Of a DNA stretch of 24,000 bases, positions 1 to 24,000 are shown one piece after another. Made by a program: the position numbers and the translations under genes. Numbering within the stretch: position 1 is the first letter of the stretch; each line of letters starts with the position of its first letter. The stretch spans positions 12,567 through 36,566 of the forward strand of contig CALJWL010000058.1 of the NCBI GenBank assembly GCA_937974565.1, given 5' to 3'. The DNA comes from an uncultured Arenicella sp. (GTDB lineage Bacteria; Pseudomonadota; Gammaproteobacteria; Arenicellales; Arenicellaceae). The notes below the pieces were generated by a model. The model made no database searches and was not told the DNA's origin. It saw only the letters and a program-made list of their open reading frames with translations.

Positions 1-2672
1 CCCAACGGCGGAATACTGGGCGGCGGCGTACCGGTTGCCGAGGCCATATTGCTCACTATACCCGCATCAATATCTGATTGGGTAATGGTGTACGTTGCGG
101 TACAAATTACGATATCGCCAGGGTCTAGGCTAGCGATACCTGCGGGACAATTAATCGAGCCATTATTCGGCGCGTCGGTAATCAAAGGGTCGCTAACCAC
201 CGCATTGCTTAACGTTACGTTGCCGGTATTTTCAACTTCAAATGAATAAACAATGGTATCACCCTCATCAACCACGTTTGAAAGCACGCCGTTAGCCGTG
301 GTAGGCAAGGTGGAAGATTTATCCAGCGCAATGGCGGCATTTTGCTGTGCGTTCGCTAAATTGCTTGCCGTATTACTGGGGCTGGCTAAGCCTGTAGACG
401 GTGGAGGAGTGCCACTGCCTATGGCCATGTTTGCCACTTCACCAATATTTACGTCATTCTGATCAACGGTGTAAACGCATTGAAATACCCATGTTTCACC
501 CGCTTCCATTTCCCCGGCAACACCAAAATCACCACTTTGAAAACCGTTCGTCAATGTCAAAGGGCCCGCTGGAGTTTCACAAATTGGGTCGACAACTTGA
601 GGAGAGGTTAACGTCACATTACCGGTATTACTGAGTTCAAAAGTGTAGGTGATTGGGTCGCCGTCACTGGCTGGGTTCGGCAATGACGTAGCCGACTTAA
701 TCAAAGAAACAGACGCTTCTTGGGTAAACCCAGAAGTAACGGTATCCGAATCAGCAATGGTGGCACCTGCTGGGTCTGCACTAATGACAGAACCGGTATT
801 TTGCACGTTCCCGGCATCCAAATCGAGTTGCGCAATGGTATAAGCAGCCGTGCAAATAACACCGTCACCTACCAACAACGGCGTTGACCCATCATTAAGA
901 AACGGGTTGCCTAATTTTGTGGTCGCTGGGCAACTGACATCGGCAATTGAATCACTGATGATGACTGCATTTAATGTGGTATTACCGGTATTGTCGACTT
1001 CCAACTGATAATTAATTACGTCACCAGGGTCAACCAGTGTGGCACTGGTGCCATTGGTCACGGTGGGGGCACTGGCCGTCTTACTTATCTCTATTGCCGA
1101 ATCAGCATCAATGCTTTGTTGAGCAACCGATGGTAGCGAGGTTACGGTTGCAGAACGTGGGTCTAAGCCTTCGGCAATGGCGCTGTTTTCAATCGCATTA
1201 GCGCCACCTGCGATTGCATTATCGACATCGGCCTGCGCCAGCGTATATGTCGCACTGCAACTGGTTGACTGGCCCGGTGTTAACATAGTGAGTGGGCAAC
1301 TGATCGCCGTCAATGAGCCTGCAGCGGCCATGTTGTTAAAGGTGGGGCCGGTGTCCACGATGGCGATTGAGTTCACCGTAACACCGCCGGAATTAGTAAC
1401 GTTAAACGTGTAAACAATGGTATCGCCAGCATCGGTAAACCCCGCATTTACACCCAACCCTGTGGTCGGCGCATCGGCCATTTTGTTTACCGTCAAAGCC
1501 GCATCAAGAGTAATGCCAGTTTGGGCAGAGCTATCTGCCACGGTCGGCAAACTTCCCCCCACTGGCGTGCCCGACGCGGCAGCTGTATTTTCAATTCCAA
1601 CGCTTGTGTTTGCGGCCAAAAACAGGTTGTCAATGTCTTGTTGCGACAAGGTATAGGTGGCCGTTACGGTTTGCGAACTGCCGGGCGCAATGCTAACAGT
1701 AACGGGGCTATAAGCGCTCAACGTATTGGTTGCTGCAACACCATTAAAGGTTGGCCCGTTGTCGATTGGGGCCGCATTATTGATGGTAACGTTTCCGGTA
1801 TTACTGAGTTCGTATGAATACGTTATTTGATCCCCTGCTTGTGAGAATGCGGTGGCGCTGCTAACCGATTTGGCAACGGTCATGGATGGCGCTGGAGCAA
1901 AGCCCGTTTCAACGGTACTCGGTGGCACGGCTGGCAGTGCGGTTGGACCAACAGGGTCACCTGTTGCGGAAGCTGAATTGTCAATCGCGGTCAACGGGTC
2001 TGCCGCTTGCGCCATGGCGTCAACGTCGGCTTGCTGCAATACATACGTGGCTGTAAATACTTGATTGTTTGAAGGAGAAATGCTCGCTGACGTAGGGCTA
2101 AACGCACTTAAGGTTCCGGCCGCTGGCTGGCCATTAAACGTCGGGCCAGAGTCTGTGGGGGTCACATTATTGATCGTAATATTACCCGTATTAGTAACCG
2201 TGTATTGGTACGTTATGGTTTCACCTGCGGCATCAAAACTGGTCGTGGGGCTAACCTCCTTCAACACCGTCATGCTGGGGCTGGGTGTCAGACCCGTCTC
2301 AACGGTGCTGTTAGGAACATTACTTAAAATGCCGTCCACGGGCATACCGGTGGCCGACGCCGTGTTATCTATTGCGGTTAATGGGTCAGTCGCCGCCGCC
2401 ATGTTGTCCAAATCTATTTGGTCTAACACATAAGTCGCACTGAATACTTGACTCTGACCAGGGTTAAGCGTGACGGCAGCAGGTGAAAAAGCGCTCAGCG
2501 TATTTTGCGAAGGGCTGCCGTTAAAAGTAACGCCGCTTGGATCTTCAAGTGGCGTTACTGAAGCAATCACAACGTTACCGGTATTAGTAACATTAAACTC
2601 ATACGTAATGGTATCTCCAGCGGCGCTAAATGACGTAGCCGTGCTGACTGACTTTACCACGCTGAGCGATGG
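1..2672 (-). repeat. Tandem array of at least 7 diverged ~390-nt (~130-aa) coding repeats inside the surface-protein gene
   Basis: On the minus strand, module starts recur at about 2672 (PSLSVVKSV), 2278 (PSMTVLKEV), 1888 (PSMTVAKSV), 1505 (DAALTVNKM), 1103 (DSAIEISKT), 719 (EASVSLIKS) and 338 (AAIALDKSS). Each is followed by GD/GE-x-I-x-Y ... N-T-G-N-V-T. The repeats are diverged at the DNA level and are not identical copies. Confidence 0.8.
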
Positions 2673-3806
2673 CATTGGTGGCTCGGCTACGACAAATGAA
2701 AAGTCCAACACGTCCCTTGAGGAGCAAACACTTTCATTCGCCAATGCGGTGGACGTGGTGTTGGTTAACACCGTGTTAGGCGCAACGGAGGCGTCCACCT
2801 CAGCAATAATGGTTAACACATGAACTTGATTGACGGCCACATTGACGTTATCCCAAACGACTGAATCTTGGGTGCCAAAATTGGTCGTTACATCGCCCGC
2901 CGTGGCCGACGCTGAAATCAGGTTAAGGCCCGCAGGAAGGGTGTCGACCAAATTACCCCCGGTGGCGTTCTCTGGCCCAGCGTTAGACATTTGAATTTCA
3001 AATACAATTTGTTCACCCGGCGCTGGCGAGGTCGCACTTCCAGCCGCCACTCCTTTAATGGTTGCCATGTCTACAAGGTTGATATCAACGCGCGTGCCAT
3101 CAAAGGGAATGTCGCCGTCAGCATCATGAACGTACCAACGCCCACCGGTGGTGGCAAAATAGTTAACGGTCCAGTTAGAAACCCCAGTCCAACTGTACTG
3201 CATGTAACCTTCTTGTTGACCGCCGTTTTGGTTCTGTGTGCCTTCGGCTAGAATATTACCGCCCGACTCTGAAACACGAATATTACTCTCACAAGCACTA
3301 TCATTATTCGCATTACAGTTCTGAATAAAATTACCGTTGGTCGTGTAAGAAGTCAGCCCACGACAGGCGGCAGAAACGCTCTCGATTGGGCTTCCACCAT
3401 TCCCATCAATGTCGGTAATTAAAAAATTGGGATCTCCTGATATAGGCGCGCCGGTCGCAGCATTGAACACCTCCCACAGCACAGTCGAAGACAAGGTACC
3501 CGTATTCGCCCGTACAACGGGGTTATCGCCACTGGTAAAAAAACGAACGCTGTCGCCCGCCGAAATGCTGGTCAACGTTGCCCGAAGACTGATTGGCACG
3601 CCACCCACGGTCCCTGCATTGGGCCAGAACTGCGTGTCTCCAACGGCGGTGGCATTGACCGTCGCAGGTGGGTTGGTGATTGATATCAGCATGGTTTGCG
3701 CGGCGGAAACGCCAGATAACACCATCAACATTAACGCCAAAACCAAGACGAACCCGGCCTTCAAAACAACTGAACCGGTTCGCACTACCGTGCCTGAATC
3801 ACACAT
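1..3806 (-). CDS. Large secreted repeat-domain surface protein (DUF11 / 'conserved repeat domain' type, adhesin-like). About 1268 N-terminal codons are present; the 3' end runs off the window.
   Basis: Missing from the ORF track because no stop codon lies in the window. Manual minus-strand translation from the ATG at 3806-3804 gives MCDSGTVVRTGSVVLKAGFVLVLALMLMVLSGVSAAQT..., which looks like a signal peptide. I saw no stop from 3806 down to about 1620. The frame was spot-checked as consistent at 3302, 1505, 1103, 719 and 338. One classical DUF11-like module is present (GEQIVFEIQMSNAGPENATGGNLVDTLPAGL). It is followed by repeated modules with the core G-D-x-I-x-Y-x-[FY]-x-[VL]-x-N-[TS]-G-N-V-T. 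Confidence 0.85.
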   Translation of the reverse strand, partial: MCDSGTVVRTGSVVLKAGFVLVLALMLMVLSGVSAAQTMLISITNPPATVNATAVGDTQFWPNAGTVGGVPISLRATLTSISAGDSVRFFTSGDNPVVRANTGTLSSTVLWEVFNAATGAPISGDPNFLITDIDGNGGSPIESVSAACRGLTSYTTNGNFIQNCNANNDSACESNIRVSESGGNILAEGTQNQNGGQQEGYMQYSWTGVSNWTVNYFATTGGRWYVHDADGDIPFDGTRVDINLVDMATIKGVAAGSATSPAPGEQIVFEIQMSNAGPENATGGNLVDTLPAGLNLISASATAGDVTTNFGTQDSVVWDNVNVAVNQVHVLTIIAEVDASVAPNTVLTNTTSTALANESVCSSRDVLDFSFVVAEPPMPSLSVVKSVSTATSFSAAGDTITYEFNVTNTGNVVIASVTPLEDPSGVTFNGSPSQNTLSAFSPAAVTLNPGQSQVFSATYVLDQIDLDNMAAATDPLTAIDNTASATGMPVDGILSNVPNSTVETGLTPSPSMTVLKEVSPTTSFDAAGETITYQYTVTNTGNITINNVTPTDSGPTFNGQPAAGTLSAFSPTSASISPSNNQVFTATYVLQQADVDAMAQAADPLTAIDNSASATGDPVGPTALPAVPPSTVETGFAPAPSMTVAKSVSSATAFSQAGDQITYSYELSNTGNVTINNAAPIDNGPTFNGVAATNTLSAYSPVTVSIAPGSSQTVTATYTLSQQDIDNLFLAANTSVGIENTAAASGTPVGGSLPTVADSSAQTGITLDAALTVNKMADAPTTGLGVNAGFTDAGDTIVYTFNVTNSGGVTVNSIAIVDTGPTFNNMAAAGSLTAISCPLTMLTPGQSTSCSATYTLAQADVDNAIAGGANAIENSAIAEGLDPRSATVTSLPSVAQQSIDADSAIEISKTASAPTVTNGTSATLVDPGDVINYQLEVDNTGNTTLNAVIISDSIADVSCPATTKLGNPFLNDGSTPLLVGDGVICTAAYTIAQLDLDAGNVQNTGSVISADPAGATIADSDTVTSGFTQEASVSLIKSATSLPNPASDGDPITYTFELSNTGNVTLTSPQVVDPICETPAGPLTLTNGFQSGDFGVAGEMEAGETWVFQCVYTVDQNDVNIGEVANMAIGSGTPPPSTGLASPSNTASNLANAQQNAAIALDKSSTLPTTANGVLSNVVDEGDTIVYSFEVENTGNVTLSNAVVSDPLITDAPNNGSINCPAGIASLDPGDIVICTATYTITQSDIDAGIVSNMASATGTPPPSIPPL

Positions 3807-4194
3807 TATTATGCTCTTTTTTTATGAATGAACGTCCCACATGATTGGCTAACTTAACAACTGATTTACCCGGATTATTAAAAGCTTGATGTCCGGCTGG
3901 CCAAAGCGGTTTCGTTTGGTATGAAGAATCTTATGTCGTGCCTCTTCGATTCATGAAACTTTAGCACGGCACGCTATGGCCCGCATTGAATTTACGACAC
4001 TTGTGGAATATTTTTATGATTTTTTACAATCAAAAAACACATAAAATCAGCTCAAACTCAATAAAATGAGCTAACAAGAAAAAGCGCCTTTGGCACAACA
4101 TGACGTAACTTTACATACATAATAGCCCCTGAAATGGTCTAAACAGTGACACCATGTGAACCGTCTCCTTTACATAGCTTGCTGAAATTTCAAA

Positions 4195-4755: not shown

Positions 4756-5538
4756 TTATTTCAATCGCACAAAGTCATCGAGTTTTTCGGCCACCAATTT
4801 CTGGCAATGCTTAGCACACTCTTTTCTTGTGGAAAATTCATCAATATAACAGACCGGATGAAAATGAATCTTAGCACCAACCTTCTTGCGTGGCATCAGA
4901 CCTAAAAAATGCGACAAAAAAGGCATGGTCGCATACCACGCGTAGTGATCACGCGTTCGTTGATTGTCAATTAACTCGCCGTTGTAGTGGGTATAAGCCA
5001 CCGTCACAGGCTGTATTGTAACGCGTTTGCCACTGGGTAGATTGGCGGCCTCTAAAAGAGACGATTTAAAAGACTCCACGTGTGTGCCATTGGTGCTTGT
5101 GCCTTCAGGAAACAGGGTTAAACTGTTGCCTTGCTCTAAGTGATCTTTCAATATTTGCAGCTGTTGTTTGGCCCTACCGGCTTTACGTTCAATAAATAAA
5201 GTGTTTTGAAACTTTGATAGCGCTCCTAATACAGGCCATGATGCCACTTCGGATTTGGCTATAAAGTAGGCCGGCAACTGCCCTAGTACAAATACGTCTA
5301 TATAAGAAACGTGGTTGCTTAAATACAGAGTCGGGCGCGCGCTACTCATCTGCCCGCTGGTGGTCACTCGTATTCCTAAAATACGACACACACCGGCATG
5401 AAACACGTGCGGCAGTTGTGCGTGTCTAGGAATACGCATAAGCCGACAAAGCATATACACCAATGGCATGGTTACAATCCACAATACCATCAATGTAATT
5501 CGTATTAGGCCGACTAAATAGTTTTTTTGATCAGGCAT
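4756..5538 (-). CDS. Lysophospholipid (1-acyl-glycerol-3-phosphate type, PlsC family) acyltransferase; OlsA-like O-acyltransferase partner of the upstream GNAT gene
   Basis: H(X)4D acyltransferase motif NHVSYID and the FPEGTSTNG block, with an N-terminal membrane helix. The start is placed at the ATG at 5538 (MPDQKNYLVGLIR...). The ORF track's longer form starts at a GTG at 5595 and adds 19 Cys/His-rich residues with no Shine-Dalgarno sequence. The start is uncertain. Confidence 0.8.
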   Translation of the reverse strand: MPDQKNYLVGLIRITLMVLWIVTMPLVYMLCRLMRIPRHAQLPHVFHAGVCRILGIRVTTSGQMSSARPTLYLSNHVSYIDVFVLGQLPAYFIAKSEVASWPVLGALSKFQNTLFIERKAGRAKQQLQILKDHLEQGNSLTLFPEGTSTNGTHVESFKSSLLEAANLPSGKRVTIQPVTVAYTHYNGELIDNQRTRDHYAWYATMPFLSHFLGLMPRKKVGAKIHFHPVCYIDEFSTRKECAKHCQKLVAEKLDDFVRLK

Positions 5539-5657
5539 GCTTATATGAGATGTTGTTGATCTTTCATGGACGGCGCACAAACATGGACGACACACAAACA
5601 GTACATCAGACGTTAACCGAATGCACTCGTCACGAATAGACGCTGGTTAAAACCATG

Positions 5658-6473
5658 TTAACCATCAATCGACTTATTAACCAGAGCGTGATTGGTATTG
5701 AACATTTCGTTAGCGTCTACGTATATTGCTACAAATGTGGTGTTAAACACGGGGTCAATAATTGCGTGTTCACTGATTCGAGCGCCAATTTTTAAATAAC
5801 CACGCAGCATGGTAGGCACCTTGCCACGCTCTTTTCCTTTACCCGGTTGTTGTCTAAAGTCGGCGATATCCACACTACTCACTTGCGCTTTAGGTATTGG
5901 CATCAGTGCGGGCGACGCCAAATGTTTATCGTAAAGGTACGAAAGAATTTCAGTGTGTTTACGATAGTCCGTGCCCTTGAAGCTGGCGCAGCCAAACAGC
6001 ACTTCGTAACCGTTATGTTCGATGAACTGCATTGTGAACTTCCAGATAAGCATCAAAATTGCCCCACCTCGCCCCTCGGGGGAGACGCAAGCGCGGCTGA
6101 GTTCTAGAATTTTGCCGTATGAGTTTCTTAAGCCATCTAAGTTAAACGCATGTTCGGTGTAAAACTCTTGGCTTTCTAACAGTGCCACACTACTGACCAA
6201 TCGCACCGTGCCAACAACACGGTTATCAGCTCTGGTGTCTACCACAACCACATGGTAGGCAATGTCATCCCACTCGTCCTCTTCTCGTTCAGTATTCAGC
6301 ATCTCTGGCGTAATCTTGCCACCGCTCTCGCGAAACAGTACTTCGTATCGAAGTTTCTGGGCCGAATGCACTTCATCATCACTTTGCGCCAAACGAACAT
6401 CATAACGACCTGCTGACATACTACCAGCGATCAGTTTAGTCATCTGTTTGAAAATTTTAGGTTTAATTGCCAT
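5658..6473 (-). CDS. GNAT-family N-acyltransferase of the OlsB / 'hemolysin-like' N-acyl amino acid synthase type
   Basis: 271 aa. YDVRLAQSDDEVHSAQKLRYEVLFRE ... EDEWDDIAYHVVVVD ... ELSRACVSPEGRGG matches the pattern I recall for OlsB-type lyso-ornithine-lipid synthases. It lies directly upstream of a PlsC-family gene, as in olsBA operons. Confidence 0.75.
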   Translation of the reverse strand: MAIKPKIFKQMTKLIAGSMSAGRYDVRLAQSDDEVHSAQKLRYEVLFRESGGKITPEMLNTEREEDEWDDIAYHVVVVDTRADNRVVGTVRLVSSVALLESQEFYTEHAFNLDGLRNSYGKILELSRACVSPEGRGGAILMLIWKFTMQFIEHNGYEVLFGCASFKGTDYRKHTEILSYLYDKHLASPALMPIPKAQVSSVDIADFRQQPGKGKERGKVPTMLRGYLKIGARISEHAIIDPVFNTTFVAIYVDANEMFNTNHALVNKSIDG

Positions 6474-13466: not shown

Positions 13467-16193
13467 ATGAATAGAATCATCATCTCGATGCTCCTGTCCG
13501 CAACCCTAATCGCGACCAACAGTCATGCTGCAACGGACGACATCGATATTCCCTTTACTAAGACCCAATTAGACAATGGGTTAACGCTGATTGTGCATGA
13601 AGATAAAAAAGCCCCTGTTGTTGCGGTTAATGTCTGGTATCACGTTGGCTCCAAAGATGAAAAACTGGGGCGCACGGGCTTTGCGCACCTTTTTGAACAC
13701 TTAATGTTTAACGGTTCTGAGAATTACAACGACGATTGGTTTAAGCCCTTTGATCGAGTTGGCGCCACAGGAATGAATGGCACCACCAACCAAGATCGCA
13801 CAAACTACTATCAAGTGGTTCCTAAAAACGCCTTGGAAATGGCGTTATGGATGGAATCTGATCGCATGGGCCATCTGCTTGGCGCAATTGACCAAGCCAA
13901 ACTGGATGAACAGCGTGGGGTGGTTAAAAACGAGAAGCGTCAAGGTGAAAATCAACCGTACGGGCGCGTCTTTAGCACCATACTCGAAAACGTTTACCCT
14001 AAAGGTCATCCGTATTCGTGGAGTGTGATAGGTTCAATGGAAGATTTGAATGCCGCCACGGTAGAAGACGTACACGAATGGTTTAAAACAAAATACGGTG
14101 CCGCTAATGCAACTCTGACTGTTGCGGGCGATGTCGACACCGCTGAAGTTCAAGGTCTGGTCAAAAAGTACTTTGGCCACATTGACGCTGGCCCTCCTCT
14201 TACCAAGCAGAGTAGCTGGATAGCAAAGCGGCAAGGCAAACACGAACAAATAATGTACGACCGAGTACCCAAAGCACGCCTGTATAAAATTTGGAATGTG
14301 CCTGAGTGGGGAACCGAAGCAGCCGACTTATTAGAGCTTGCTTCGGGCGTGTTGTCTAACGATAAAAAGTCTCGCTTATACAACCGTTTGGTCTACAAAG
14401 AGCAGAAAGCAAACGACATAGCCGCCTTCTCATTTAATTCTGAAATATCCGGCTTATTCGGTGTTATAGCGACCGCGGATAAATCAGAAGACTTGGACTA
14501 TATCAGTCAAGCCATCGACGAAGAACTCGCCAAATTCATGGCAAAAGGTCCGACGAAAGAAGAACTCAGTCGAGTAAAAACATCATCAAGAGCCGGCTTT
14601 ATTCGTGGCTTAGAACGCATTGGAGGCAAAGCTGACTTGTTGGCGCAAAACGAAGTGTTTGGCGGCCGCCCTGACTTTTACAAAACCTCTATAGAACGAT
14701 TCGAGAACGCCTCAGCCAAAGACGTGATGAACGCGGCAAAAACATGGCTAAGTGACGGCGAGTATAGTTTGCGTGTACTGCCCTTCGATCAACACTCAAC
14801 AACCGCCAGCACAGTGGATCGCAGCAAAGGCATTCCAGTGATTGGCGCCGCTCCTCAAGTTAGTTTTGATCGCCTTGAAAGGGCCACACTTAGCAATGGT
14901 TTGAAAGTGATATTGGCAAATCGCAGCGCCGTGCCCGTGGTTCGCATGCAGTTATTGGTGGATGCGGGCTACGCTGCCGATCAAGGCATTAAGCCCGGCA
15001 CAGCCAATTTAACAATGGCCATGCTAGACGAAGGCACCAAGTCAAGGGACGCACTCGACATCAGCAGCAAACTTGCCGCCATGGGCACCAGCCTCAGCAG
15101 CACTGCAAGTTTAGATTCCTCGTCTGTATCACTGAATACATTAAAAGAGAATCTTGATGAGTCTGTGAATATTTTTGCGGATGTTATCTTAAACCCAAGC
15201 TTCCCAAAAGACGAACTTGAACGACTACGCCAACAACAACTAGCCGCAATTGCACAGGAGAAATCCACCCCGTTTGGTGCCGCTCTGAGGGTGTTACCAA
15301 ACATTCTTTACGGTGAAGGCCACGCTTACGCGGCCCCATTCTCAGGTTCAGGCACGGAGGCCAGCGTTGCCTCTATGTCTACCGATGATTTAAGCACATA
15401 TCACAAGACTTGGTTTAAAGCGAATAACGCCACTCTGATTGTGACGGGCGACATCAACTTAACTGAATTGGTGCCGCTGGCTGAAAAAGCGCTGGGAGAA
15501 TTACCGACGGGCAACGTCCCGACCAAAAACATCAGCGACATAGCTCCAATGGCAGATTCTCGAATCTACCTCATTGATCGGCCAGGTTCAGAGCAATCGG
15601 TCATCATCGGCACTAAAATGCTGCCTAAATTTGGTTTTAAGGGTGAGCAAGCCATGCAACTAATGAACGAGGTCTTAGGCGCCAGCTTTAACTCTCGCAT
15701 TAACCTAAATTTACGAGAAGACAAAGGCTGGTCGTATGGCGCTCGCAGCATCGTGCGAGGAACCCAAGCTCAACGTCCGTTTATCACTTACGCCCCCGTG
15801 CAAACCGATAAAACCGCTGAGTCGTTATTAGAACTGTACGGTGAGGTTAAATCAATCCGAAGTGATCGACCGGCGTCTGCTGAAGAATTGGCCAGATCAT
15901 TAGATAAGAAGATTCTAACTCTGCCCGGTCGATGGGAGACTGCAGCGGCCGTTCAGGGTGATATCGTCACGCTGGCACGCTACGGCCTTGATGAAAGTTA
16001 CTGGGACAACTACGTGACCGAATTAAGGCAAATAGATCTGGCGCAAGTAAATGATGCCGCCAAAGAACATATGCAACCCGATAACATGCTTTGGGTCATT
16101 GTTGGTGATCGTTCTCGTGTCGAACAAGCCATACGCGACACTAAAATCGGCGAAGTCATATTGGTCGATGCTGAAGGCAAAGCCGTTCAATAG
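13467..16193 (+). CDS. Secreted M16 (pitrilysin/insulinase) family zinc peptidase, a fused two-half form
   Basis: 908 aa. Signal peptide MNRIIISMLLSATLIATNSHA. Inverted zinc motif HLFEHLMFNG near residue 74. The second half (from about residue 470) is M16-like but lacks HxxEH. Confidence 0.9.
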   Translation: MNRIIISMLLSATLIATNSHAATDDIDIPFTKTQLDNGLTLIVHEDKKAPVVAVNVWYHVGSKDEKLGRTGFAHLFEHLMFNGSENYNDDWFKPFDRVGATGMNGTTNQDRTNYYQVVPKNALEMALWMESDRMGHLLGAIDQAKLDEQRGVVKNEKRQGENQPYGRVFSTILENVYPKGHPYSWSVIGSMEDLNAATVEDVHEWFKTKYGAANATLTVAGDVDTAEVQGLVKKYFGHIDAGPPLTKQSSWIAKRQGKHEQIMYDRVPKARLYKIWNVPEWGTEAADLLELASGVLSNDKKSRLYNRLVYKEQKANDIAAFSFNSEISGLFGVIATADKSEDLDYISQAIDEELAKFMAKGPTKEELSRVKTSSRAGFIRGLERIGGKADLLAQNEVFGGRPDFYKTSIERFENASAKDVMNAAKTWLSDGEYSLRVLPFDQHSTTASTVDRSKGIPVIGAAPQVSFDRLERATLSNGLKVILANRSAVPVVRMQLLVDAGYAADQGIKPGTANLTMAMLDEGTKSRDALDISSKLAAMGTSLSSTASLDSSSVSLNTLKENLDESVNIFADVILNPSFPKDELERLRQQQLAAIAQEKSTPFGAALRVLPNILYGEGHAYAAPFSGSGTEASVASMSTDDLSTYHKTWFKANNATLIVTGDINLTELVPLAEKALGELPTGNVPTKNISDIAPMADSRIYLIDRPGSEQSVIIGTKMLPKFGFKGEQAMQLMNEVLGASFNSRINLNLREDKGWSYGARSIVRGTQAQRPFITYAPVQTDKTAESLLELYGEVKSIRSDRPASAEELARSLDKKILTLPGRWETAAAVQGDIVTLARYGLDESYWDNYVTELRQIDLAQVNDAAKEHMQPDNMLWVIVGDRSRVEQAIRDTKIGEVILVDAEGKAVQ

Positions 16194-16425: not shown

Positions 16426-16502
16426 TGGCGGAGCGGACGGGACTCGAACCCGCGACCCCCGGCGTGACAGGCCGGTATTCTAACCAACTGAACTACCGCT
16501 CC
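16426..16502 (-). tRNA. tRNA-Asp (anticodon GUC), CCA encoded
   Basis: The reverse complement GGAGCGGTAGTTCAGTTGGTTAGAATACCGGCCTGTCACGCCGGGGGTCGCGGGTTCGAGTCCCGTCCGCTCCGCCA folds as a cloverleaf. It is nearly identical to E. coli tRNA-Asp. Confidence 0.97.
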
Positions 16503-16570
16503 AGCTTGCTAACATCCTTAAAGTTTATTACTTTTCCCTTACAAAATTAATCTACGGACTGTGCTAGAAA

Positions 16571-16598
16571 GACAAAACCCTCAGCTATTAACTGAGGG
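16571..16598 (-). terminator. Terminator-like hairpin between the two tRNA-Asp genes
   Basis: On the minus strand: CCCTCAG-ttaatag-CTGAGGG followed by TTTTGTCTTTC. This is a 7-bp stem plus a T-rich tail. Confidence 0.45.
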
Positions 16599-16622
16599 CT
16601 TGCTATTCGGGAAACTTGAAAA

Positions 16623-16699
16623 TGGCGGAGCGGACGGGACTCGAACCCGCGACCCCCGGCGTGACAGGCCGGTATTCTAACCAACTGAACTACCGCTCC
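16623..16699 (-). tRNA. tRNA-Asp (anticodon GUC), second copy
   Basis: 77 nt, 100% identical to 16426-16502. Confidence 0.97.
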
Positions 16700-16814
16700 G
16701 CATTTCCAAATTTAAACTCTTTTACAGTGCTATAAGATCTCACTCATACCAAATTAGAAGTGAATCTTAAGCAGTTAAGTAAAATTTCAACAATTTAACT
16801 TAAACTCAAAAGAA

Positions 16815-16890
16815 TGGTGGGCGTTAGTGGACTTGAACCACTGACCCTCGCCTTGTAAGGGCGATGCTCTACCAACTGAGCTAAACGCCC
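16815..16890 (-). tRNA. tRNA-Val (anticodon UAC), CCA encoded
   Basis: The reverse complement GGGCGTTTAGCTCAGTTGGTAGAGCATCGCCCTTACAAGGCGAGGGTCAGTGGTTCAAGTCCACTAACGCCCACCA gives a complete cloverleaf with anticodon loop CUUACAA. Confidence 0.97.
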
Positions 16891-17263: not shown

Positions 17264-18220
17264 ATGGAACTCTCCACCCCTTTTATCAAACTGCCATTTC
17301 TTTTTGATGCTGATCGGCTCAGTCAAGAAGTGCAACAATTTGAGGCCAACACATGGATGGCTCACCCCAATCGAATCAATGGCAATAGCGCCATTGCGCT
17401 GATATCGCACCGCGGTGACGATAATAATGACTTTTCTGGACGCATGCGCCCAACTCAGCATCTTGTCCAATGTGAATATATTCAGCAAGTAATGGCCAGT
17501 TTTGGAGAAGTGTTAGCTCGCTCTCGCTTGATGCGCTTGGCGGCCCAATCAGAAGTTACGGCGCATGTGGACTTCAATTATCATTGGTATAACCGTGTGC
17601 GCATCCACATTCCCGTCATCACTAATCCTGATGTTGTGTTTTACTGCGGCAACGAACAACGGCATATGCAAGCTGGCGAATGTTGGATTTTCGATTCGTG
17701 GCGCCGACATAAAGTGACGAATACCAGCGACTTAGATCGAGTGCATTTGGTGATCGACACAGCCGGTTCATCTCGATTCTGGAACATGGTCGACCTGGCC
17801 GCCAGCGGCAACGTCAAAACCAAATCAATCCCATACAAAGTTGGTGTGAAAAAGAATGTTAAAACTGAGAGATTCAATGTTGCACCGGTAATGGCGCCTG
17901 GTGAATTAGAAGCCATTGCAAAAGAATTGATGGCGGACATATTGGCAAACCCTCAGAACGAGAAAAACATTGCTAACGAATACCACGTATTACTCAGAAA
18001 CTTAGCGAAGGATTGGCGAGAAGTTTGGCATCAATTTGGTTGCACCCGCGCGGGCCATAAACACTATCAAGCCTTGTTAAATCGCACGGTAAAAAGCTTG
18101 CATGCGAACCCACGTGTGCTTGTCACCCACAGCAACAACGTGGGCATCAACCCGATTATCATGCAACGCATACTGCGTGCTGCGCTTAACTCAGATCAAC
18201 TAGGCTTGTTCTTTGAATAA
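17264..18220 (+). CDS. Aspartyl/asparaginyl beta-hydroxylase-like (AspH/LpxO/OlsC-family cupin, Fe(II)/2-oxoglutarate oxygenase) domain protein, standalone paralog
   Basis: 318 aa. Has AHVD ... NRVRIHIPV ... CWIFDSWRRHKV ... RVHLVIDT, an H-x-D...H triad in a cupin context. It is colinear over its full length with the N-terminal ~330 aa of the 19280-21211 product. The aligned N-termini support both start codons. No signal peptide. Confidence 0.75.
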   Translation: MELSTPFIKLPFLFDADRLSQEVQQFEANTWMAHPNRINGNSAIALISHRGDDNNDFSGRMRPTQHLVQCEYIQQVMASFGEVLARSRLMRLAAQSEVTAHVDFNYHWYNRVRIHIPVITNPDVVFYCGNEQRHMQAGECWIFDSWRRHKVTNTSDLDRVHLVIDTAGSSRFWNMVDLAASGNVKTKSIPYKVGVKKNVKTERFNVAPVMAPGELEAIAKELMADILANPQNEKNIANEYHVLLRNLAKDWREVWHQFGCTRAGHKHYQALLNRTVKSLHANPRVLVTHSNNVGINPIIMQRILRAALNSDQLGLFFE

Positions 18221-18271
18221 CGCACCACTCAACCTAATGAACCCTTATTAGACCAGCCCTTTTTGGAAAGC

Positions 18272-19132
18272 ATGAAGATCAATAAAGTGTCGGCCTTCTC
18301 TGACAACCAACGCGGGGGAAACCCTGCCGGTGTGACGGTGCTTGAGGGCATGCCAAGTGAGGCAGACATGCAAGCCATAGCGGCCGACGTTGGTTTTTCT
18401 GAAACCGTGTTCTCTGCCCCAGATGCAACCGCAACTCATGGCACAACGCCCGATTCAACGGTCTGGCGAGTACGATACTTTTCCCCTCAACACGAGGTGG
18501 CGTTTTGTGGCCACGCCACCATCGCATTAGGAGCTGTTTTAGCAAAACACCACGGTCAACGCACGTTCAATCTGCGGCTCAATCACACTGAGATTAGTGT
18601 TGATGGCTTTGAAAGAAATGGCCAATACTCGGCCGCTTTTCAATCACCAAAAACGTACTCATTGGCGGTAGAACCCAATCACATATCCGATGCTCTCAAG
18701 CTGTTTGGGTTGCAAGACTCGCAGTTGGATAAGCGCATACCCCCAGCGATTATAAATGCCGGTGTAAACCATTTACTGCTTAACCTCATGGATCACGAGA
18801 CATTAAGGCAAATGAGGTATGACCTAGAGGCAGGCAAAGCCTTTATGCAACATTTAGGCGTTACCACCGTAATGCTGGTATTTAAGCAAAACGATCACCA
18901 GTACCATGCACGCAACGCCTTCGCACCCGGTGGGGTATACGAAGACCCCGCCACCGGTGCGGCGGCCGCCGCGTTTGCAGGGTATTTACGAGACTCTCTT
19001 GGACAAGGTGCGGGGCAACTAGAAATAACACAAGGTGAGGACATGGGCTTTAAGTCCATCATTAATGCTTCATTTACATCGCAAAAAGCCAGCTCTGTTC
19101 GTATTGCTGGTGCAACGCACGTATTGCCTTGA
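18272..19132 (+). CDS. PhzF-family (diaminopimelate-epimerase fold) isomerase-like protein
   Basis: MKINKVSAFSDNQRGGNPAGV ... FCGHATIALG ... FAPGGVYEDPATGAAAAAFAGYL is typical of PhzF/YddE proteins. The ORF track starts at a TTG at 18263; I prefer the ATG at 18272. Confidence 0.85.
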   Translation: MKINKVSAFSDNQRGGNPAGVTVLEGMPSEADMQAIAADVGFSETVFSAPDATATHGTTPDSTVWRVRYFSPQHEVAFCGHATIALGAVLAKHHGQRTFNLRLNHTEISVDGFERNGQYSAAFQSPKTYSLAVEPNHISDALKLFGLQDSQLDKRIPPAIINAGVNHLLLNLMDHETLRQMRYDLEAGKAFMQHLGVTTVMLVFKQNDHQYHARNAFAPGGVYEDPATGAAAAAFAGYLRDSLGQGAGQLEITQGEDMGFKSIINASFTSQKASSVRIAGATHVLP

Positions 19133-19279
19133 TGCATCGCAACGATGGCTTCTTTTTTGCTCTGAACTTACAACCAACACCAGGTTAAAAAGTTACGCAC
19201 ATTTCCTGTGGATAACTTTGTGAGTAATTCCTAAGACCACTGACGCTGAGTAGAAAAACGCAGATTGATTAATATTTAA

Positions 19280-21211
19280 TCAACGCTTTTTATTAGAGAA
19301 GCGATCATGAAAATCGTTAATACGTTGCTGAACACTCACGTACTCCGTTTGAACGCCCAGCAGTGTGTCTTGATGTCGTAACCATTTATCAGTGCGGGGT
19401 TGGGTCAATGCATATTTGGAGTTTGGAAAGCCGGTTCGAGCGTACGATTGCATTTTCGGTCCAAATGGTGCTTTTATAAAGCCGCACACCGCCTTCAGTG
19501 TCTCGAATGGGGTTTCAAGCAACTCTTCATAACTCAAACAGTAAATGTCTTGCTGCGCTGTATTGAACAACTCTGACTGAAAATCATCCATAATTTGTCG
19601 ATTGGTTTGCGCCCATTGAAAAGCCGCAACTTCGGCAAGGCTGCGCCCTATTTTTTCACGCCAACCCTCAACTAACAATAATGACCATGATACACCCGTC
19701 CACTTTGGTAACTGTTGATAAGTAACAAACTTACCCGACTCCCATGCGTCTATCATGCTGCCAATATTAGGCTCAGCTTGGCGATGCAAATAAATAAATT
19801 TAGCATCCGGGAACATTCGTTTAAAGAAAGGAAGACGTAAAGCATTCTTAGGTGTTTTCTCTAAAAAACGAACGGCAGAAGGCTGAAAATCTGGCGGCAT
19901 ATCAGCGTAAGGCGCGCAGCGCGAGTTTTGCAGTCGATGCATAAAAGCGTCCATGATTTGTTCGCCAACCTCACGGTTAAAATCACTCTCATCCAAACGA
20001 TTGGAATGAAAGCCTCGATTGAGCGGGTTTAGTGTGGCGATCGACTCGATTTCCTGATGTGCTTCATCGCCCATGCTCCAAAGGTCTTTATTAAACTTAA
20101 GCGCTTCAAACAACATGGTGCTGCCCGAGCGTGGAGCGCCCACAATAAACACCGGCGCCTCAAATTTGGGTGTCTTACCCTTATAACTTGAGTTCTCCAT
20201 CACGCTTATCTTCAAAACTTTTGATTGCGCGGCTTCTTTGTCTACAGCCAAGTCTAACCAATTGTTGATCACGTGATGGGCGGGCACACCATTACTCTTT
20301 AAGAACACGCTGCGTAATGGGTTTTTAAGTTCACTTTTGACGGTCTCGATTAAGGTTAAATACCGTTGAATACCTTCTGAAGTATCCAAATATTGCGCCC
20401 AATAGCCTCTCCAGTCACGGCATAGGGCTACTAGCTCAGCTTGAATTCTTGCAAACACACTTGCGTCGCTCATCGATTCGATTTCAATCAGAAAATCACG
20501 CACCAGTGCTTCAATTTCATCAGGCGATCGTACGGAAACCACATTGTATCTTTCAAACGGAAGTTCCAACGTGGGCGCTCGTTCGTCAAACTCAAGGTGT
20601 TTTACGCTTTTAGCCCAATCCGCCAGTGAGCTATTGTCGTTGCCATTGGGGTCCCAGCCATTGTCAGCCAAACACCAAAAATTCGCCGTACCAACTGTGT
20701 CAATCACCAAATGAATGCGATGGATGTCCGATTGATTAATAACCGCGTGTTCACGCCAATTGTCAAATATCCACGCTTCGCCGGCACGTTTATGCACGTT
20801 CACTTGAGGCTTATCAGAGGTGGACATCGAAGAAAAAACTATTCGCGGATCAGTCACAATGGGAATGTGTATTCTGACTCGGTTACGCCACGTGTAATCG
20901 GTATCGCTGTGCGCCGGAACGCCTTTACCTGGGGCCAAACGCATAAAGCGTGACCGCCCAATGATCGTCTCAAATGACGCCATAATTTGTTGAATATAGG
21001 GGCATTTCCCCAGAGCTGCAGTGGCTTTCATCTCGCCGATGTAAGCATAACTACGGTCACCGTTTTTTGACACCAAATTAAGGGCTGTATTTCCGTCGTA
21101 TCTTTGCGGGTGATAATCCCACTCGTATTCCGAAAATTGCTTGGCTTCGTGAGCCAACCTCTGAACATCAAAACTGAGAGGTAAGCGAATAAATTCAGAC
21201 TTAAGGCGCAT
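19280..21211 (-). CDS. Fusion protein: an N-terminal AspH-like oxygenase module (aa 1 to ~330) and a C-terminal PAPS-type sulfotransferase domain (aa ~345-643)
   Basis: 643 aa. The N-terminus has AHSD ... NRVRIHIPIV ... AWIFDNWREHAV ... RIHLVIDT. The C-terminus has the 5'-PSB P-loop VFIVGAPRSGSTMLFEAL (about nt 20160-20110) and an R...S block IYLHRQAEPNIGSMIDAW. No signal peptide. Confidence 0.8.
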   Translation of the reverse strand: MRLKSEFIRLPLSFDVQRLAHEAKQFSEYEWDYHPQRYDGNTALNLVSKNGDRSYAYIGEMKATAALGKCPYIQQIMASFETIIGRSRFMRLAPGKGVPAHSDTDYTWRNRVRIHIPIVTDPRIVFSSMSTSDKPQVNVHKRAGEAWIFDNWREHAVINQSDIHRIHLVIDTVGTANFWCLADNGWDPNGNDNSSLADWAKSVKHLEFDERAPTLELPFERYNVVSVRSPDEIEALVRDFLIEIESMSDASVFARIQAELVALCRDWRGYWAQYLDTSEGIQRYLTLIETVKSELKNPLRSVFLKSNGVPAHHVINNWLDLAVDKEAAQSKVLKISVMENSSYKGKTPKFEAPVFIVGAPRSGSTMLFEALKFNKDLWSMGDEAHQEIESIATLNPLNRGFHSNRLDESDFNREVGEQIMDAFMHRLQNSRCAPYADMPPDFQPSAVRFLEKTPKNALRLPFFKRMFPDAKFIYLHRQAEPNIGSMIDAWESGKFVTYQQLPKWTGVSWSLLLVEGWREKIGRSLAEVAAFQWAQTNRQIMDDFQSELFNTAQQDIYCLSYEELLETPFETLKAVCGFIKAPFGPKMQSYARTGFPNSKYALTQPRTDKWLRHQDTLLGVQTEYVSVQQRINDFHDRFSNKKR

Positions 21212-21231
21212 AAAACCGGCTCAAGCGAATA

Positions 21232-23244
21232 CTAAGCGGCTTCAAAGGGGTAACGAGCAAGCACATCATCACCAAGCGCGTCGATTAACGGTTTTAGGTG
21301 GCGTTCAAAGTTTCGCCATTGCTCTAGCCCAGTTTTATAAATCGGCTGACGCACCTGCTCTGAACTCGGGGTTCGCACGTTACGTTCAGTTTTATAAAAC
21401 TCCAAGCAAGATTCTTCAAACGGCAAGCCACAAAAGTCTAAAATTTTTCTTACCTGAAATTCTAAGTCGTTAACAACGTCCTCATGCTGCACCCTCAAAA
21501 CAAAACCTGGCAACACGGCATCCCAGTGATCCATTAACTCAACGTAGTTTTTGTAATAGTCTCCAATCTCTTGCAAGCCATAAGTGAACTCTTGTCCTTC
21601 AGCAAACAGTTGTTTGAAACCACTGAAACAACACGCCATTGGGTGGCGCCTAGCGTCAATCACTTTGGCGTTTGGCAGTATTAATTTAATCAAGCCGACA
21701 TGCATAAAGTTATTCGGCATTTTATCGATAAAGAACGCCGCACCTTGCCTGAAAACATGCGTTTCTTCTATGTATTGCTCACCAAATTTGGCGAAGTAAT
21801 CCGTTTCAAGAGTGGCGAGTATTTTCGGGTATTGCGGCTCAGCGCCCTCTTCCAGTGAGTCTCTGCCGCGCAGGCGGCGACTCAAACTAAGAATATTAGG
21901 CAACTCTAGCGTACCGTCAACTTGAGAATGAGACGCCAGAATTTGCTCCAGCAGCGTTGAACCTGCGCGTGGCAACCCTAAAATGAAGATCGGGTCTGGC
22001 GCTGAATGGCCGACATCACTTAAGCGTTCAAACAGCGCTTTAGTGCAATTATTTTTCTGATACTGAACTCGCTTTGTCACTTCAGGGGATTGGTAGTTTA
22101 AGATTTCTTTATTTAAGCGATTGCCTTCACCATAAGCTCGGAATGCAAGATCGTATTCTTTTCGATCTTCGTAGGCTTTTCCAAGAGCAAAATTAAAATG
22201 CACTTTATCAATGGCGGAGGTTTCTTCACGTTCTTTATAGTCAAGCATGTGCGTGACTTCATCGTCTGAAAATTCATACGCCTTTGTGTTCGCCAAACTC
22301 CAAAACGCGTCACCGTAATCTGGCTGTAGCTCATACAAACGTTGATAACATTCAATTGCGGCCGGGAGATTACCAAGGGTTTTTTCAGCGTGGCCGCACA
22401 GAAGATACGCATGATGAAGGTTATACCCTTGAGCAATCAGCGTTCGGTACAAATCAACCGCCGATTGAGTTTCACCGACGCCCGCTAACGCAGAGGCGTA
22501 CAGACCTTGAAATTGCAACACGTCTGGTTGTTCGTTTATTAATGCCAGTGCAATCTCATGCGCAGCACCAAACTTCTGCCGCTTAATCAATACATTGGCG
22601 TAGTCAAAACGGGCCCCCACATGATCTGGCGCAAAGGTTACCGCGCTTTCTAAGATAAACTCCGCATCATCTAAAATTTTCGCACGTTGAGCTATTTCAG
22701 CCAGCAAACGCATGCCTTCTATGTCTTGCTTGTTTTGCTGCATGTACTGTCGACATGCTTGATCAGCTGAATCAATGTCATCTCGATTCAAGAAACTTTT
22801 CACGGCTTGCAAGGCCGGGTGCAATGCCTCTAACTGTTTAATTTCAAGGCGTGCTTGTAATGCACCCTCAGGGTTCGCGTTTTCCTCATGCAACGCTTTT
22901 AACGCACGCCAACTGCCTATTAACGCCGAGTCAACCGACACCGCCCTCTCGAATGCCTCAATCGCAGCACGAGCATTGCCTTGTTGCCTGAAGATATGGC
23001 CAACTTCTTGGTGCGCACGTGCAAAACTTGGGTCTTGAAGAACAATACTTTGCAACTGGCTGACTGCTTTTTGAGGCTGCCCTAAACGCCTTAAACACAC
23101 GGCTCTTACGTACGCCGCTTCAACGTTTTCTACAACAAGGGCATTCAATGAGTCTAAGGTTGCCAGGGCCGCCTTAAACTGGCCTGCCTTGGCGAGTTCT
23201 GTGGCTTTATTAATGACGGTGGCTTGGTCGTGCATTGCGGTCAT
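21232..23244 (-). CDS. Tetratricopeptide-repeat (about 400 aa) plus sulfotransferase (about 250 aa) fusion protein
   Basis: 670 aa. The N-terminal part has repeated TPR-like A-x-x-x-[FY]-x-x-A helix pairs. The C-terminus has IFILGLPRAGSTLLEQILASH (5'-PSB, about nt 21990-21950) and VIDARRHPMACCFSGFKQ (3'-PB-like). It ends 20 nt before the next gene's ATG, so the two are probably co-transcribed. Confidence 0.85.
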   Translation of the reverse strand: MTAMHDQATVINKATELAKAGQFKAALATLDSLNALVVENVEAAYVRAVCLRRLGQPQKAVSQLQSIVLQDPSFARAHQEVGHIFRQQGNARAAIEAFERAVSVDSALIGSWRALKALHEENANPEGALQARLEIKQLEALHPALQAVKSFLNRDDIDSADQACRQYMQQNKQDIEGMRLLAEIAQRAKILDDAEFILESAVTFAPDHVGARFDYANVLIKRQKFGAAHEIALALINEQPDVLQFQGLYASALAGVGETQSAVDLYRTLIAQGYNLHHAYLLCGHAEKTLGNLPAAIECYQRLYELQPDYGDAFWSLANTKAYEFSDDEVTHMLDYKEREETSAIDKVHFNFALGKAYEDRKEYDLAFRAYGEGNRLNKEILNYQSPEVTKRVQYQKNNCTKALFERLSDVGHSAPDPIFILGLPRAGSTLLEQILASHSQVDGTLELPNILSLSRRLRGRDSLEEGAEPQYPKILATLETDYFAKFGEQYIEETHVFRQGAAFFIDKMPNNFMHVGLIKLILPNAKVIDARRHPMACCFSGFKQLFAEGQEFTYGLQEIGDYYKNYVELMDHWDAVLPGFVLRVQHEDVVNDLEFQVRKILDFCGLPFEESCLEFYKTERNVRTPSSEQVRQPIYKTGLEQWRNFERHLKPLIDALGDDVLARYPFEAA

Positions 23245-23418
23245 AATTCGATCAAAGGTGATGGTTGCGGTTATGAAATGCTTACGAATATAGAGGTCAG
23301 ACTGTTATCAAGAGTAATTTAAACCAAAGACGGTCAAGAACGCCCAAAAGGTTAAAAAACGCCCATAAGCGCCTCACTCACCCCAGCCTGATAAAACAAA
23401 TTTTAACAAGATAATTCA

Positions 23419-23447
23419 TAAAAAAGGCGAGCCTCACGGCTCGCCTT
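23419..23447 (-). terminator. Rho-independent terminator of the TonB-dependent receptor gene
   Basis: On the minus strand: AAGGCGAGCC-gtga-GGCTCGCCTT followed by TTTTTTATG. This is a 10-bp GC-rich stem. Confidence 0.85.
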
Positions 23448-23543
23448 ATAGCGCTTACGGATCAAATATAACAAACGTTAACCACTTTGAACCGTTTACA
23501 GCAATACGAATGTACGCTAAGTAACGCTTTCCACTGTCAACGC

Positions 23544-24000
23544 TTAGTTATAATCCCAACGAAAGCGTAAGCCAACGGTTCGTGGGCGCGTGACAGAAAC
23601 ACGTGGCACATAGTCAAATGTGCTGATATTGACAATGCCGTCCTCGTCAAACAAGTTGTTGATAAATAACTCAACCCCCCAGTTGTCTTTGTCAATACCC
23701 GCTGACACGTTGACCAAGGAGTATGATTCCTGAATATAACGGCCGTTTTGGAAAAAGGAGCCGTCGGGCGTTAAGCCAAATGAACCCGGAGTCGCTACCC
23801 TTGAAGCACCAAACGTGCCACCTTCGTTCTGGATAGTTAAGCCCGTACCTCGGCCGTACAAACGACGAGTGGTGTCTTCAACAAAATTGGCGTTACCAAC
23901 GATGCCTGAGAAGCTATCACCGGTGTAAACCACACCGGCTTGGACAAACGCATCAGCACCAAAACTGTCGAAGCGAAAATCGTATCTACCACGCAGATTG
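23544..24000 (-). CDS. TonB-dependent outer-membrane receptor, C-terminal part; the 5' end lies outside the window
   Basis: The frame stays open upstream of the ORF track's GTG at 23933 through to 24000 (...NLRGRYDFRFDSFGADAFVQAGVVYTGD...). It shows the alternating beta-strand pattern and a C-terminal barrel-closing segment, VSVTRPRTVGLRFRWDYN. Confidence 0.8.
   Translation of the reverse strand, partial: NLRGRYDFRFDSFGADAFVQAGVVYTGDSFSGIVGNANFVEDTTRRLYGRGTGLTIQNEGGTFGASRVATPGSFGLTPDGSFFQNGRYIQESYSLVNVSAGIDKDNWGVELFINNLFDEDGIVNISTFDYVPRVSVTRPRTVGLRFRWDYN

Follow-up and report, generated by a model that had tools for sequence, protein, structure and literature searches.

A conserved receptor–sulfotransferase gene pair with accessory hydroxylases in an uncultured Arenicella, possibly serving the sulfation of a small quaternary-amine or imino-acid metabolite

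A 24,000-nucleotide stretch of DNA from an uncultured Arenicella sp. (contig CALJWL010000058.1, positions 12,567 to 36,566; hereafter the window) ends in a gene cluster whose conserved core is a TonB-dependent receptor followed by a sulfotransferase joined to an array of tetratricopeptide repeats (TPR; the protein is called TPR-ST below). Beside this core stand a hydroxylase–sulfotransferase fusion and a solo Fe(II)/2-oxoglutarate (2OG) cupin hydroxylase, both accessory to one subclade, the fusion having been gained or lost among close relatives, and a PhzF-family gene. Judged from gene context and from the nearest solved relatives of the enzymes, the cluster may serve to take up a small quaternary-amine or imino-acid metabolite through the receptor, to hydroxylate it at a C–H bond and to O-sulfate it, a reading to which we give a rough probability of 0.4. 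An initial annotation made from the window alone had read four of these genes as a hydroxylate-then-sulfate system, and that interpretation is partly supported: the gene set is conserved, but the idea had already been proposed computationally (Iyer et al. 2010; PMC2938197).

The evidence for the core comes from a metagenome scan seeded with the window TPR-ST (21232–23244, minus strand; 670 aa), which returned 572 relatives, the best 80 of which (full length, 48–67% identity) supplied gene context. A receptor gene lies directly upstream of the TPR-ST gene on the same strand in 55 of the 60 testable metagenomic loci, at a median gap of 91 nt, and a receptor ortholog occupies the same place in the close genome loci too. 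Receptor and TPR-ST also co-diverge, as seen in their identities to the window proteins (Spearman 0.46, n = 69), and the pair is common in metagenomes from seawater, sediment and saline sites. AspH-type genes were present in only five metagenomic TPR-ST loci and the fusion in none. In total the comparison set comprised about 165 related loci (labelled L001 onward), with ORFs (open reading frames) called mechanically (at least 90 aa, overlaps removed greedily) and domain hidden Markov models (HMMs) trained on those same loci; metagenomic contigs are often short, and because the compared loci share descent the counts overstate independence.

Only the C-terminal 151 codons of the 913-aa receptor fall within the window (23544–24000, minus strand, continuing past its end), and this fragment matches TIGR01783 weakly; the full-length protein in the longer public contig (L001) is 913 aa and contains both PF07715 (Plug) and PF00593 (barrel). 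Between the receptor and TPR-ST genes stands a hairpin followed by a U-run (23414–23447, minus strand; AAGGCGAGCC-GUGA-GGCUCGCCUU), which the initial annotation took for a strong terminator belonging to the receptor. The hairpin is real, the segment 23447–23424 with its T-run folding at −20.6 kcal/mol (z = −3.6 against shuffles), and the same stem recurs in four close loci (L002, L003, L014 and L015) and with compensatory changes in L004. However, it is a conserved intercistronic element, likely a partial terminator or an mRNA-stabilizing one, and the receptor is the most constant partner of TPR-ST. A spacer hairpin with a T-run is present in 27 of 61 metagenomic loci, the other gaps running from −4 to about 60 nt. 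A precursor peptide in the spacer was considered and rejected, as six close loci searched in six frames had only the hairpin in common and no ORF.

Both sulfotransferase domains are of the type that depends on 3′-phosphoadenosine 5′-phosphosulfate (PAPS). PF13469 (Sulfotransfer_3; threshold 27 bits) scores 167.8 bits on TPR-ST (aa 418–611; domain about 21235–22029) and 77 bits on the fusion (19280–21211, minus strand; 643 aa), where the match at aa 353–583 lies within a domain spanning aa 341–643 (19283–20191). The 5′-phosphosulfate-binding (5′-PSB) loop is intact in each, PRSGST at 360 in the fusion and PRAGST at aa 425–430 in TPR-ST, which agrees with the earlier description of one cupin-fused and one TPR-fused domain. 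P360, R361 and G363, together with the 3′-phosphate-binding (3′-PB) pair R477...S485, are invariant among 25 fusion homologs, and the Glu of the CurM 'PPELH' segment, which we take to be catalytic, is matched by an acidic residue in the alignment. The closest sequence matches of both domains are the CurM and OLS sulfotransferases, TPST1 matching less well than CurM at an E-value of about 1e-9. The remainder of TPR-ST is an array of about 400 aa matching TPR families (roughly aa 10–375; about 22030–23244) and most similar to the array of OGT; the TPR–sulfotransferase architecture itself had been noted in a 2005 survey (PMC554113).

The catalytic motifs of the oxygenase modules are intact as well. 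PF05118 (gathering threshold 22.6 bits) scores 66 bits on the solo cupin (17264–18220, plus strand; 318 aa) and 52.8 bits on the fusion (aa 59–172), whose cupin and helical module occupy aa 1–330 (20222–21211) and are tethered to the sulfotransferase by a linker (aa 331–340) that is disordered in an AlphaFold2 model of mean pLDDT (predicted local distance difference test) 88. The paralogy of the two oxygenases, previously read from short motifs, is confirmed by 38% identity over 318 aa (E 9e-67); H101-x-D103 and NRVRIHIP at 110 are common to both, the distal His lies in RRH149KV in the solo cupin and in REH155AV in the fusion, and the Arg lies in R159VHLVID and R165IHLVID, respectively. Across 25 diverse fusion homologs the metal and 2OG residues H101, D103, H155 and R165 are invariant. 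The profile-HMM check that the initial annotation had called for thus places all four of its proteins well above threshold for PF05118, PF13469, TPR or PF02567.

The AspH-like label first given to the oxygenases holds for PF05118 membership but not for the nearest relatives. The best solved-structure sequence matches of the fusion profile and the solo cupin are L-proline cis-4-hydroxylase and proline 3-hydroxylase (profile E 4.7e-9). A Foldseek search with the fusion model ranks the former first (4p7w/4p7x, E 4e-9, 320 columns, 16% identity), followed by a nucleoside-antibiotic hydroxylase, the CurM sulfotransferase, proline 3-hydroxylase, Stf1/Stf9 and TPST1/2, and reaches human AspH at rank 17 through the cupin core (about 166 residues) only. 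On these sequence and model comparisons the oxygenase module is nearest to hydroxylases of free small molecules, not to human AspH. The L-proline cis-4-hydroxylase (4p7w/4p7x) additionally binds pipecolate. NCBIfam matches of the fusion to OlsC (18.9 bits, E 7e-4, cut-off 450) and LpxO (15.7 bits, E 6e-3, cut-off 500) fall far below their cut-offs.

All four ORFs were found where the initial annotation had placed them, and the 20 nt it counted between the TPR-ST stop and the fusion start was confirmed. The N-termini of the four proteins are not hydrophobic and none has a transmembrane-like segment (maximum Kyte–Doolittle value over 19 residues 0.83–1.24), so that hydropathy points to the cytoplasmic location proposed earlier. 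In L001 the order is AraC, an enoyl-CoA hydratase/thiolase-like gene, a TauE/TSUP permease, the 913-aa receptor, TPR-ST and the fusion, an array convergent with PhzF and the solo cupin. The permease gene, co-directional with the receptor and upstream of it, is present at 3435–4244 in L001 and at 12435–12873 in L165, and at no other locus; it may be an inner-membrane transporter for an organosulfur anion. AraC, the hydratase/thiolase-like gene and TauE were considered as conserved parts and rejected, TauE alone recurring and only in L165. Beyond the solo cupin, a tRNA-Asp, tRNA-Asp, tRNA-Val cluster (16426–16890, minus strand) stands where all close relatives carry genes for a betaine/choline/carnitine carrier (BCCT) and a gamma-butyrobetaine-hydroxylase (GBBH)-like protein upstream of the solo hydroxylase, and probably marks a rearrangement breakpoint.

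It is in these relatives that a substrate lead is found. The initial annotation had seen no substrate clue, and the window holds none, but related loci offer genes for BCCT carriers, choline sulfatase, choline dehydrogenase and GBBH-like and DpkA-like enzymes. The BCCT carrier is the commonest third partner (30 of 75 TPR-ST loci; 38 loci over both locus sets), and it lies directly downstream of TPR-ST on the same strand in 14 of 52 loci. Close genome relatives, Arenicella metagenome-assembled genomes among them (L002–4, L014–16 and L027), carry the receptor, TPR-ST, the fusion and a 207-aa Sulfotransfer_2 gene in an array that converges on a TmpA/GBBH-like gene, a BCCT carrier and the solo cupin; TPR-ST and fusion are separated by at most about 40 nt in the close relatives, L016 excepted. 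Solo cupin orthologs (57–75% identical; L002–4, L014, L027, L082 and L165) each have a BCCT gene before them, at distances from a 4-nt overlap to 218 nt, and in close relatives the gene is co-directional with, and usually tightly behind, a CaiT/YeaV-like BCCT and a TmpA/GBBH-like dioxygenase, as the final gene of a (betC)–GBBH-like–BCCT–hydroxylase operon. The locus with the nearest fusion (L082; 74% identical) shares this layout but lacks both the Sulfotransfer_2 gene and PhzF.

In two of these relatives, L003 and L027, the first gene of the convergent operon is a choline-sulfatase equivalog (cut-off 433 bits; scores 804 and 760), and the operon is adjoined by a choline-dehydrogenase (betA) equivalog (L003 17199–20600; L027 5810–9203); a sulfatase and sulfotransferases therefore share one neighbourhood. 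Other recurrent neighbours of TPR-ST are a DpkA-like pyrroline/piperideine-2-carboxylate reductase (E 4e-83 to 1wtj), a 2,5-dioxovalerate/alpha-ketoglutarate-semialdehyde-dehydrogenase-like protein, a type I phosphodiesterase, purU and soxB/soxA-like (sarcosine-oxidase-like) genes. A further set, comprising a 576–584-aa protein without a Pfam match, DUF3726 and an M19 peptidase-like protein, accompanies the receptor/TPR-ST pair and BCCT genes in seven loci (L091, L101, L105, L107, L111, L112 and L161). The theme of these neighbours is the uptake and catabolism of quaternary amines and of N-heterocyclic or N-methyl amino acids. A comparison of halotolerance also reports, without locus detail, that clusters of AspH-domain, TonB-receptor, BCCT and sulfotransferase proteins co-occur with salt tolerance (PMC10040529).

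The observations made here, on which domains are present, on cofactor motifs that are intact, on gene order and on co-divergence, can be joined in a scheme in which substrate class, order of steps and direction of flux are proposals. The window would carry a pared-down form of a module that is conserved in marine Gammaproteobacteria and built on the receptor and a cytoplasmic TPR-ST. The receptor would move a scarce small polar compound over the outer membrane, and an inner-membrane carrier would import it to the cytoplasm, this being a BCCT in most relatives and, in the window, possibly the TauE/TSUP permease just upstream of the receptor. Two Fe(II)/2OG hydroxylases, the solo enzyme and the fusion N-module, both from the proline-hydroxylase-like branch of PF05118, would then add a hydroxyl, and the PAPS-dependent sulfotransferases (the fused domain and TPR-ST) would esterify the hydroxyl or hydroxyls. 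The product would be a sulfate-ester zwitterion of the choline-O-sulfate type, serving as an osmolyte, a storage compound or an intermediate. Hydroxylases that supply the hydroxyl would have been added in the subclade of the window, where the fusion would join both steps in one polypeptide. The likeliest substrate would be found among quaternary-amine or N-heterocyclic imino-acid metabolites, for example choline, gamma-butyrobetaine/carnitine, or proline/pipecolate and their betaines.

Several observations weigh against this scheme. The window lacks BCCT, GBBH-like and betC genes, and the substrate lead therefore comes from relatives only. A TPR array of some 400 aa is odd among small-molecule enzymes and looks like the arrays with which OGT binds proteins, and we know of no need for TonB-dependent receptors in the uptake of small zwitterions that can permeate porins. 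Why sulfotransferases and a choline sulfatase should share a neighbourhood is not obvious. The sulfotransferase domains are about equally far from enzymes acting on acyl-ACP (CurM; ACP, acyl carrier protein), glycolipid (Stf) and peptide (TPST), and the loci compared are related by descent, with counts that are not independent and an ORF calling that is crude.

The 120 best database matches to the fusion are nearly all PF05118+PF13469 proteins of 600–660 aa, and 331 stretches with relatives of it were found in species-representative genomes of Gamma- and Alphaproteobacteria, Cyanobacteria and other groups. Culturable carriers of the fusion include Litorirhabdus singularis IMCC14734, Solimonas aquatica DSM 25927, Steroidobacter flavus and Brevundimonas fluminis. 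Within 8 kb of the fusion, in the 71 loci with an intact fusion ORF, there is a TPR-ST gene in 28, an extra AspH-type or TPR-AspH gene in 28, a TonB-dependent receptor in 21 and PhzF in one, the contig of the window itself. About half of the fusions are solitary among housekeeping genes (mfd, RNase R, alaS, clpP, RND [resistance–nodulation–division] pump), which argues that the fusion is a self-sufficient unit, not dependent on a protein substrate encoded beside it. In genomes of the Steroidobacter, Nevskia and Solimonas type, receptor, TPR-ST, TPR-AspH and fusion follow one another in that order, together with more 2OG oxygenases and sulfotransferases. Nine loci (L022, L037, L048, L055, L062, L064, L066, L070 and L081) are large clusters with the receptor, several TPR-sulfotransferases, TPR-AspH and the fusion, to which Sel1–2OG oxygenase and 2OG-FeII_Oxy_3/4/5 genes are added; a 2-oxoglutarate dehydrogenase E1 gene lies near the first four of these and near L023. 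A further nine loci, belonging to cyanobacteria, Porticoccaceae and Thiotrichaceae, have beside the fusion a gene for a secreted parallel beta-helix repeat protein that is rich in Asn/Asp and about 1238 aa long (L017–L020, L025, L029, L033, L039 and L040; for example L033 5999–9715), a candidate substrate protein for these lineages.

The expectation that the genes would co-occur in related genomes is borne out for the receptor/TPR-ST pair but not for the fusion and solo cupin, which are accessory to one subclade. The closest relative overall, L165, is 81% identical to the window in TPR-ST, 86% in the receptor and 75% in the solo cupin, and lacks the fusion. Its layout is GBBH-like, BCCT, solo cupin (plus), LysR (minus) and PhzF (plus), convergent with TPR-ST, receptor and TauE (minus). 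The window PhzF gene (18263–19132, plus strand; start 9 nt later, at 18272, in public gene calls, giving 286 aa) is a sound member of its family (PF02567, 179 bits; TIGR00654, 152 bits against a cut-off of 76.2), but the family is very large and the best non-self matches are merely 56% identical. It had been counted among the core parts, a place it does not keep, for it is present in 2 of about 165 related loci. That it is unique to the window was also considered and rejected when context look-ups of its homologs revealed L165, the only locus with PhzF in the same junction (56% identical); four other top homologs stand in unrelated contexts. Because only L165 has them in the same position, PhzF and TauE are best regarded as lineage-specific additions, and membership of the PhzF family does not imply phenazine synthesis here, since the window has no phenazine genes.

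Elsewhere in the window, one open frame of at least 1273 codons (2–3821, minus strand) continues past the window start and has a hydrophobic N-terminal leader and repetitive adhesin-like sequence; the short plus-strand ORFs in this interval are its antisense. An rRNA explanation for the ORF-poor region 1–3800 was rejected, as Rfam yields only the three tRNAs and the region is antisense to the long gene. Adjacent acyltransferase genes with PF01553 and PF13444 (FeeM-like) at 4756–6473 (minus strand) resemble an OlsA/OlsB ornithine-lipid pair; a distance of 11 kb separates them from the AspH-family genes, with which they share no synteny in relatives. The gene at 13467–16193 (plus strand), for a secreted peptidase of the M16 family (pitrilysin-like; 908 aa) with two peptidase halves, has no visible tie to the cluster.

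The most serious competitor to small-molecule sulfation is the modification of a protein or peptide, in which the cupins would hydroxylate Asp/Asn, Pro or another residue, the TPR array would select the substrate and O-sulfation would occur in the cytoplasm before export, the substrate being either the precursor of the co-encoded receptor or a secreted protein whose gene lies elsewhere. We regard this as unlikely but worth keeping in view, since it accommodates the OGT-like sequence of the TPR array, the presence of TPST1/2 among the sulfotransferase fold matches and the clusters of distant fusion relatives, which are rich in TPR-AspH, Sel1-P4H-like and other 2OG oxygenases and contain several TPR-STs. 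The beta-helix protein beside the fusion in nine loci would be a plausible substrate, receptor and TPR-ST, being strictly paired 1:1, would suit the roles of substrate and enzyme, and protein substrates were proposed for related neighbourhoods by Iyer et al. (PMC2938197). However, neither a candidate substrate gene nor a conserved small ORF was found in the window or the close clade, the oxygenase is nearer to hydroxylases of free amino acids than to AspH, and the recurrent partners in the clade of the window are small-molecule carriers and catabolic enzymes. A sulfated outer-membrane protein precursor is also without precedent to our knowledge. A specific form of the proposal, in which TPR-ST and the fusion would make an O-sulfated hydroxy-amino-acid residue on the receptor or another exported protein before secretion, is improbable; it would account for the large TPR array as well as for the strict one-to-one match of receptor with enzyme and, if true, would be a bacterial post-translational modification without precedent.

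Two further accounts are less likely than protein modification. That the genes make a sulfated, hydroxylated amino-acid-derived secondary metabolite, siderophore-like or a signal, which is exported and retaken via the adjacent receptor, is doubtful. Receptor genes do commonly adjoin siderophore biosynthesis genes, the receptor has a generic similarity to siderophore receptors, an exporter might be supplied by the TauE/TSUP permease (window contig and L165), an RND pump gene stands directly before the fusion in L031 and L045, and export with re-uptake was proposed by Iyer et al. for other receptor-linked dioxygenase neighbourhoods (PMC2938197). Yet no close locus has a nonribosomal peptide synthetase (NRPS), an NRPS-independent siderophore (NIS) synthetase, a ligase or a precursor gene, the commonest version of the module is merely receptor and TPR-ST (with or without BCCT) and is hence too little for biosynthesis, and the neighbouring genes (betC, betA, sox, aldehyde dehydrogenases) belong to catabolism. 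Lipid tailoring, with LpxO/OlsC-type acyl hydroxylation of lipid A or ornithine lipid and subsequent sulfation by the CurM-like domains, seems very improbable: the fusion does match OlsC and LpxO weakly, TPR-AspH proteins of distant loci match OlsC at 119 bits, the best sulfotransferase match, CurM, sulfates a beta-hydroxyacyl group and OlsB/OlsA-like genes are present at 4756–6473, but the scores lie far under the cut-offs, the proteins have no membrane segments, the proline-hydroxylase match is better and spans the whole module, and the Ols-like genes are distant and non-syntenic. Least probable of all is that the genes share no function and stand together by chance or rearrangement. The window is indeed rearranged relative to all relatives, with tRNAs in place of BCCT/GBBH, its PhzF is only 56% identical to the lone syntenic counterpart against 75–86% for the flanking genes, and the two gene pairs are convergent and do not form one operon; against this, the receptor/TPR-ST pairing and the adjacency of fusion and solo paralog recur across deep divergence, and the short spacing of TPR-ST and fusion is kept in the close relatives other than L016.

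If small-molecule uptake, hydroxylation and sulfation is indeed the function, it would represent the first bacterial route to sulfate esters of betaine-type osmolytes and the first TonB-dependent receptor dedicated to betaine-type compounds, both of which would matter for the cycling of organic sulfur and nitrogen in the sea. The fusion, present in hundreds of species of Proteobacteria and Cyanobacteria, would be a compact two-step catalyst from C–H to C–O–SO3. The substrate lead provided by the relatives makes the question directly testable. In the literature searched, no characterised system with this gene set was found, as the initial annotation had supposed, nor was experimental work on these proteins or a description of the receptor/TPR-ST/BCCT association.

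Known systems resemble parts of the cluster. The CurM and OLS sulfotransferases, TPST1/2, RaxST and the mycobacterial Stf enzymes share with it the P-loop sulfotransferase fold, the PRSGST-type 5′-PSB loop and the R...S 3′-PB motif; the CurM and OLS domains, however, belong to polyketide synthases (PKS) and act on ACP-bound acyl groups, and no PKS gene is present here, whereas TPST and RaxST sulfate peptide tyrosines, and no peptide precursor is present here. The proline hydroxylases (4p7w/4p7x; 1e5r) share the H-x-D...H triad and the whole module of about 320 aa including its helical part, at 16–17% identity and with no sulfotransferase fused to them. Human AspH shares PF05118 membership, the cupin core and a TPR domain alongside, but only the core aligns, the TPR here is on a separate sulfotransferase and on neither oxygenase, and no EGF-like gene was seen in the window. 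The metal site of human AspH has two His ligands only, against the full H-x-D...H triad of the window cupins.

The closest precedent in gene context is the prediction by Iyer, Abhiman, de Souza and Aravind of bacterial beta-hydroxylase/sulfotransferase neighbourhoods in which hydroxylation is followed by sulfation (Iyer et al. 2010; PMC2938197). That work shares the hydroxylate-then-sulfate logic and the placing of TonB-type receptors beside 2OG dioxygenases, and differs in gene content: its sets include PhyH-methyltransferase fusions, PAPS synthetases, collagen-like/tail-collar proteins and tryptophan halogenases or SapC, which do not belong to the present set, no PhyH-methyltransferase fusion, PAPS synthetase or collagen-like/tail-collar gene being found in the window, L001 or the close-clade loci. 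The receptor/TPR-ST/BCCT triad and the choline-sulfatase link are not described in its available text (PMC2938197). In the literature searched we found no bacterial choline sulfotransferase. The plant choline sulfotransferase is a Sulfotransfer_1-type protein without TPR. The likeness to choline-O-sulfate metabolism (choline sulfotransferase in plants and fungi; betC/betA/BetT in bacteria) lies in the betC and betA equivalogs and the BetT-/CaiT-like BCCT carriers of the related loci, and a sulfated quaternary-amine alcohol would, by analogy, be a product of the same type.

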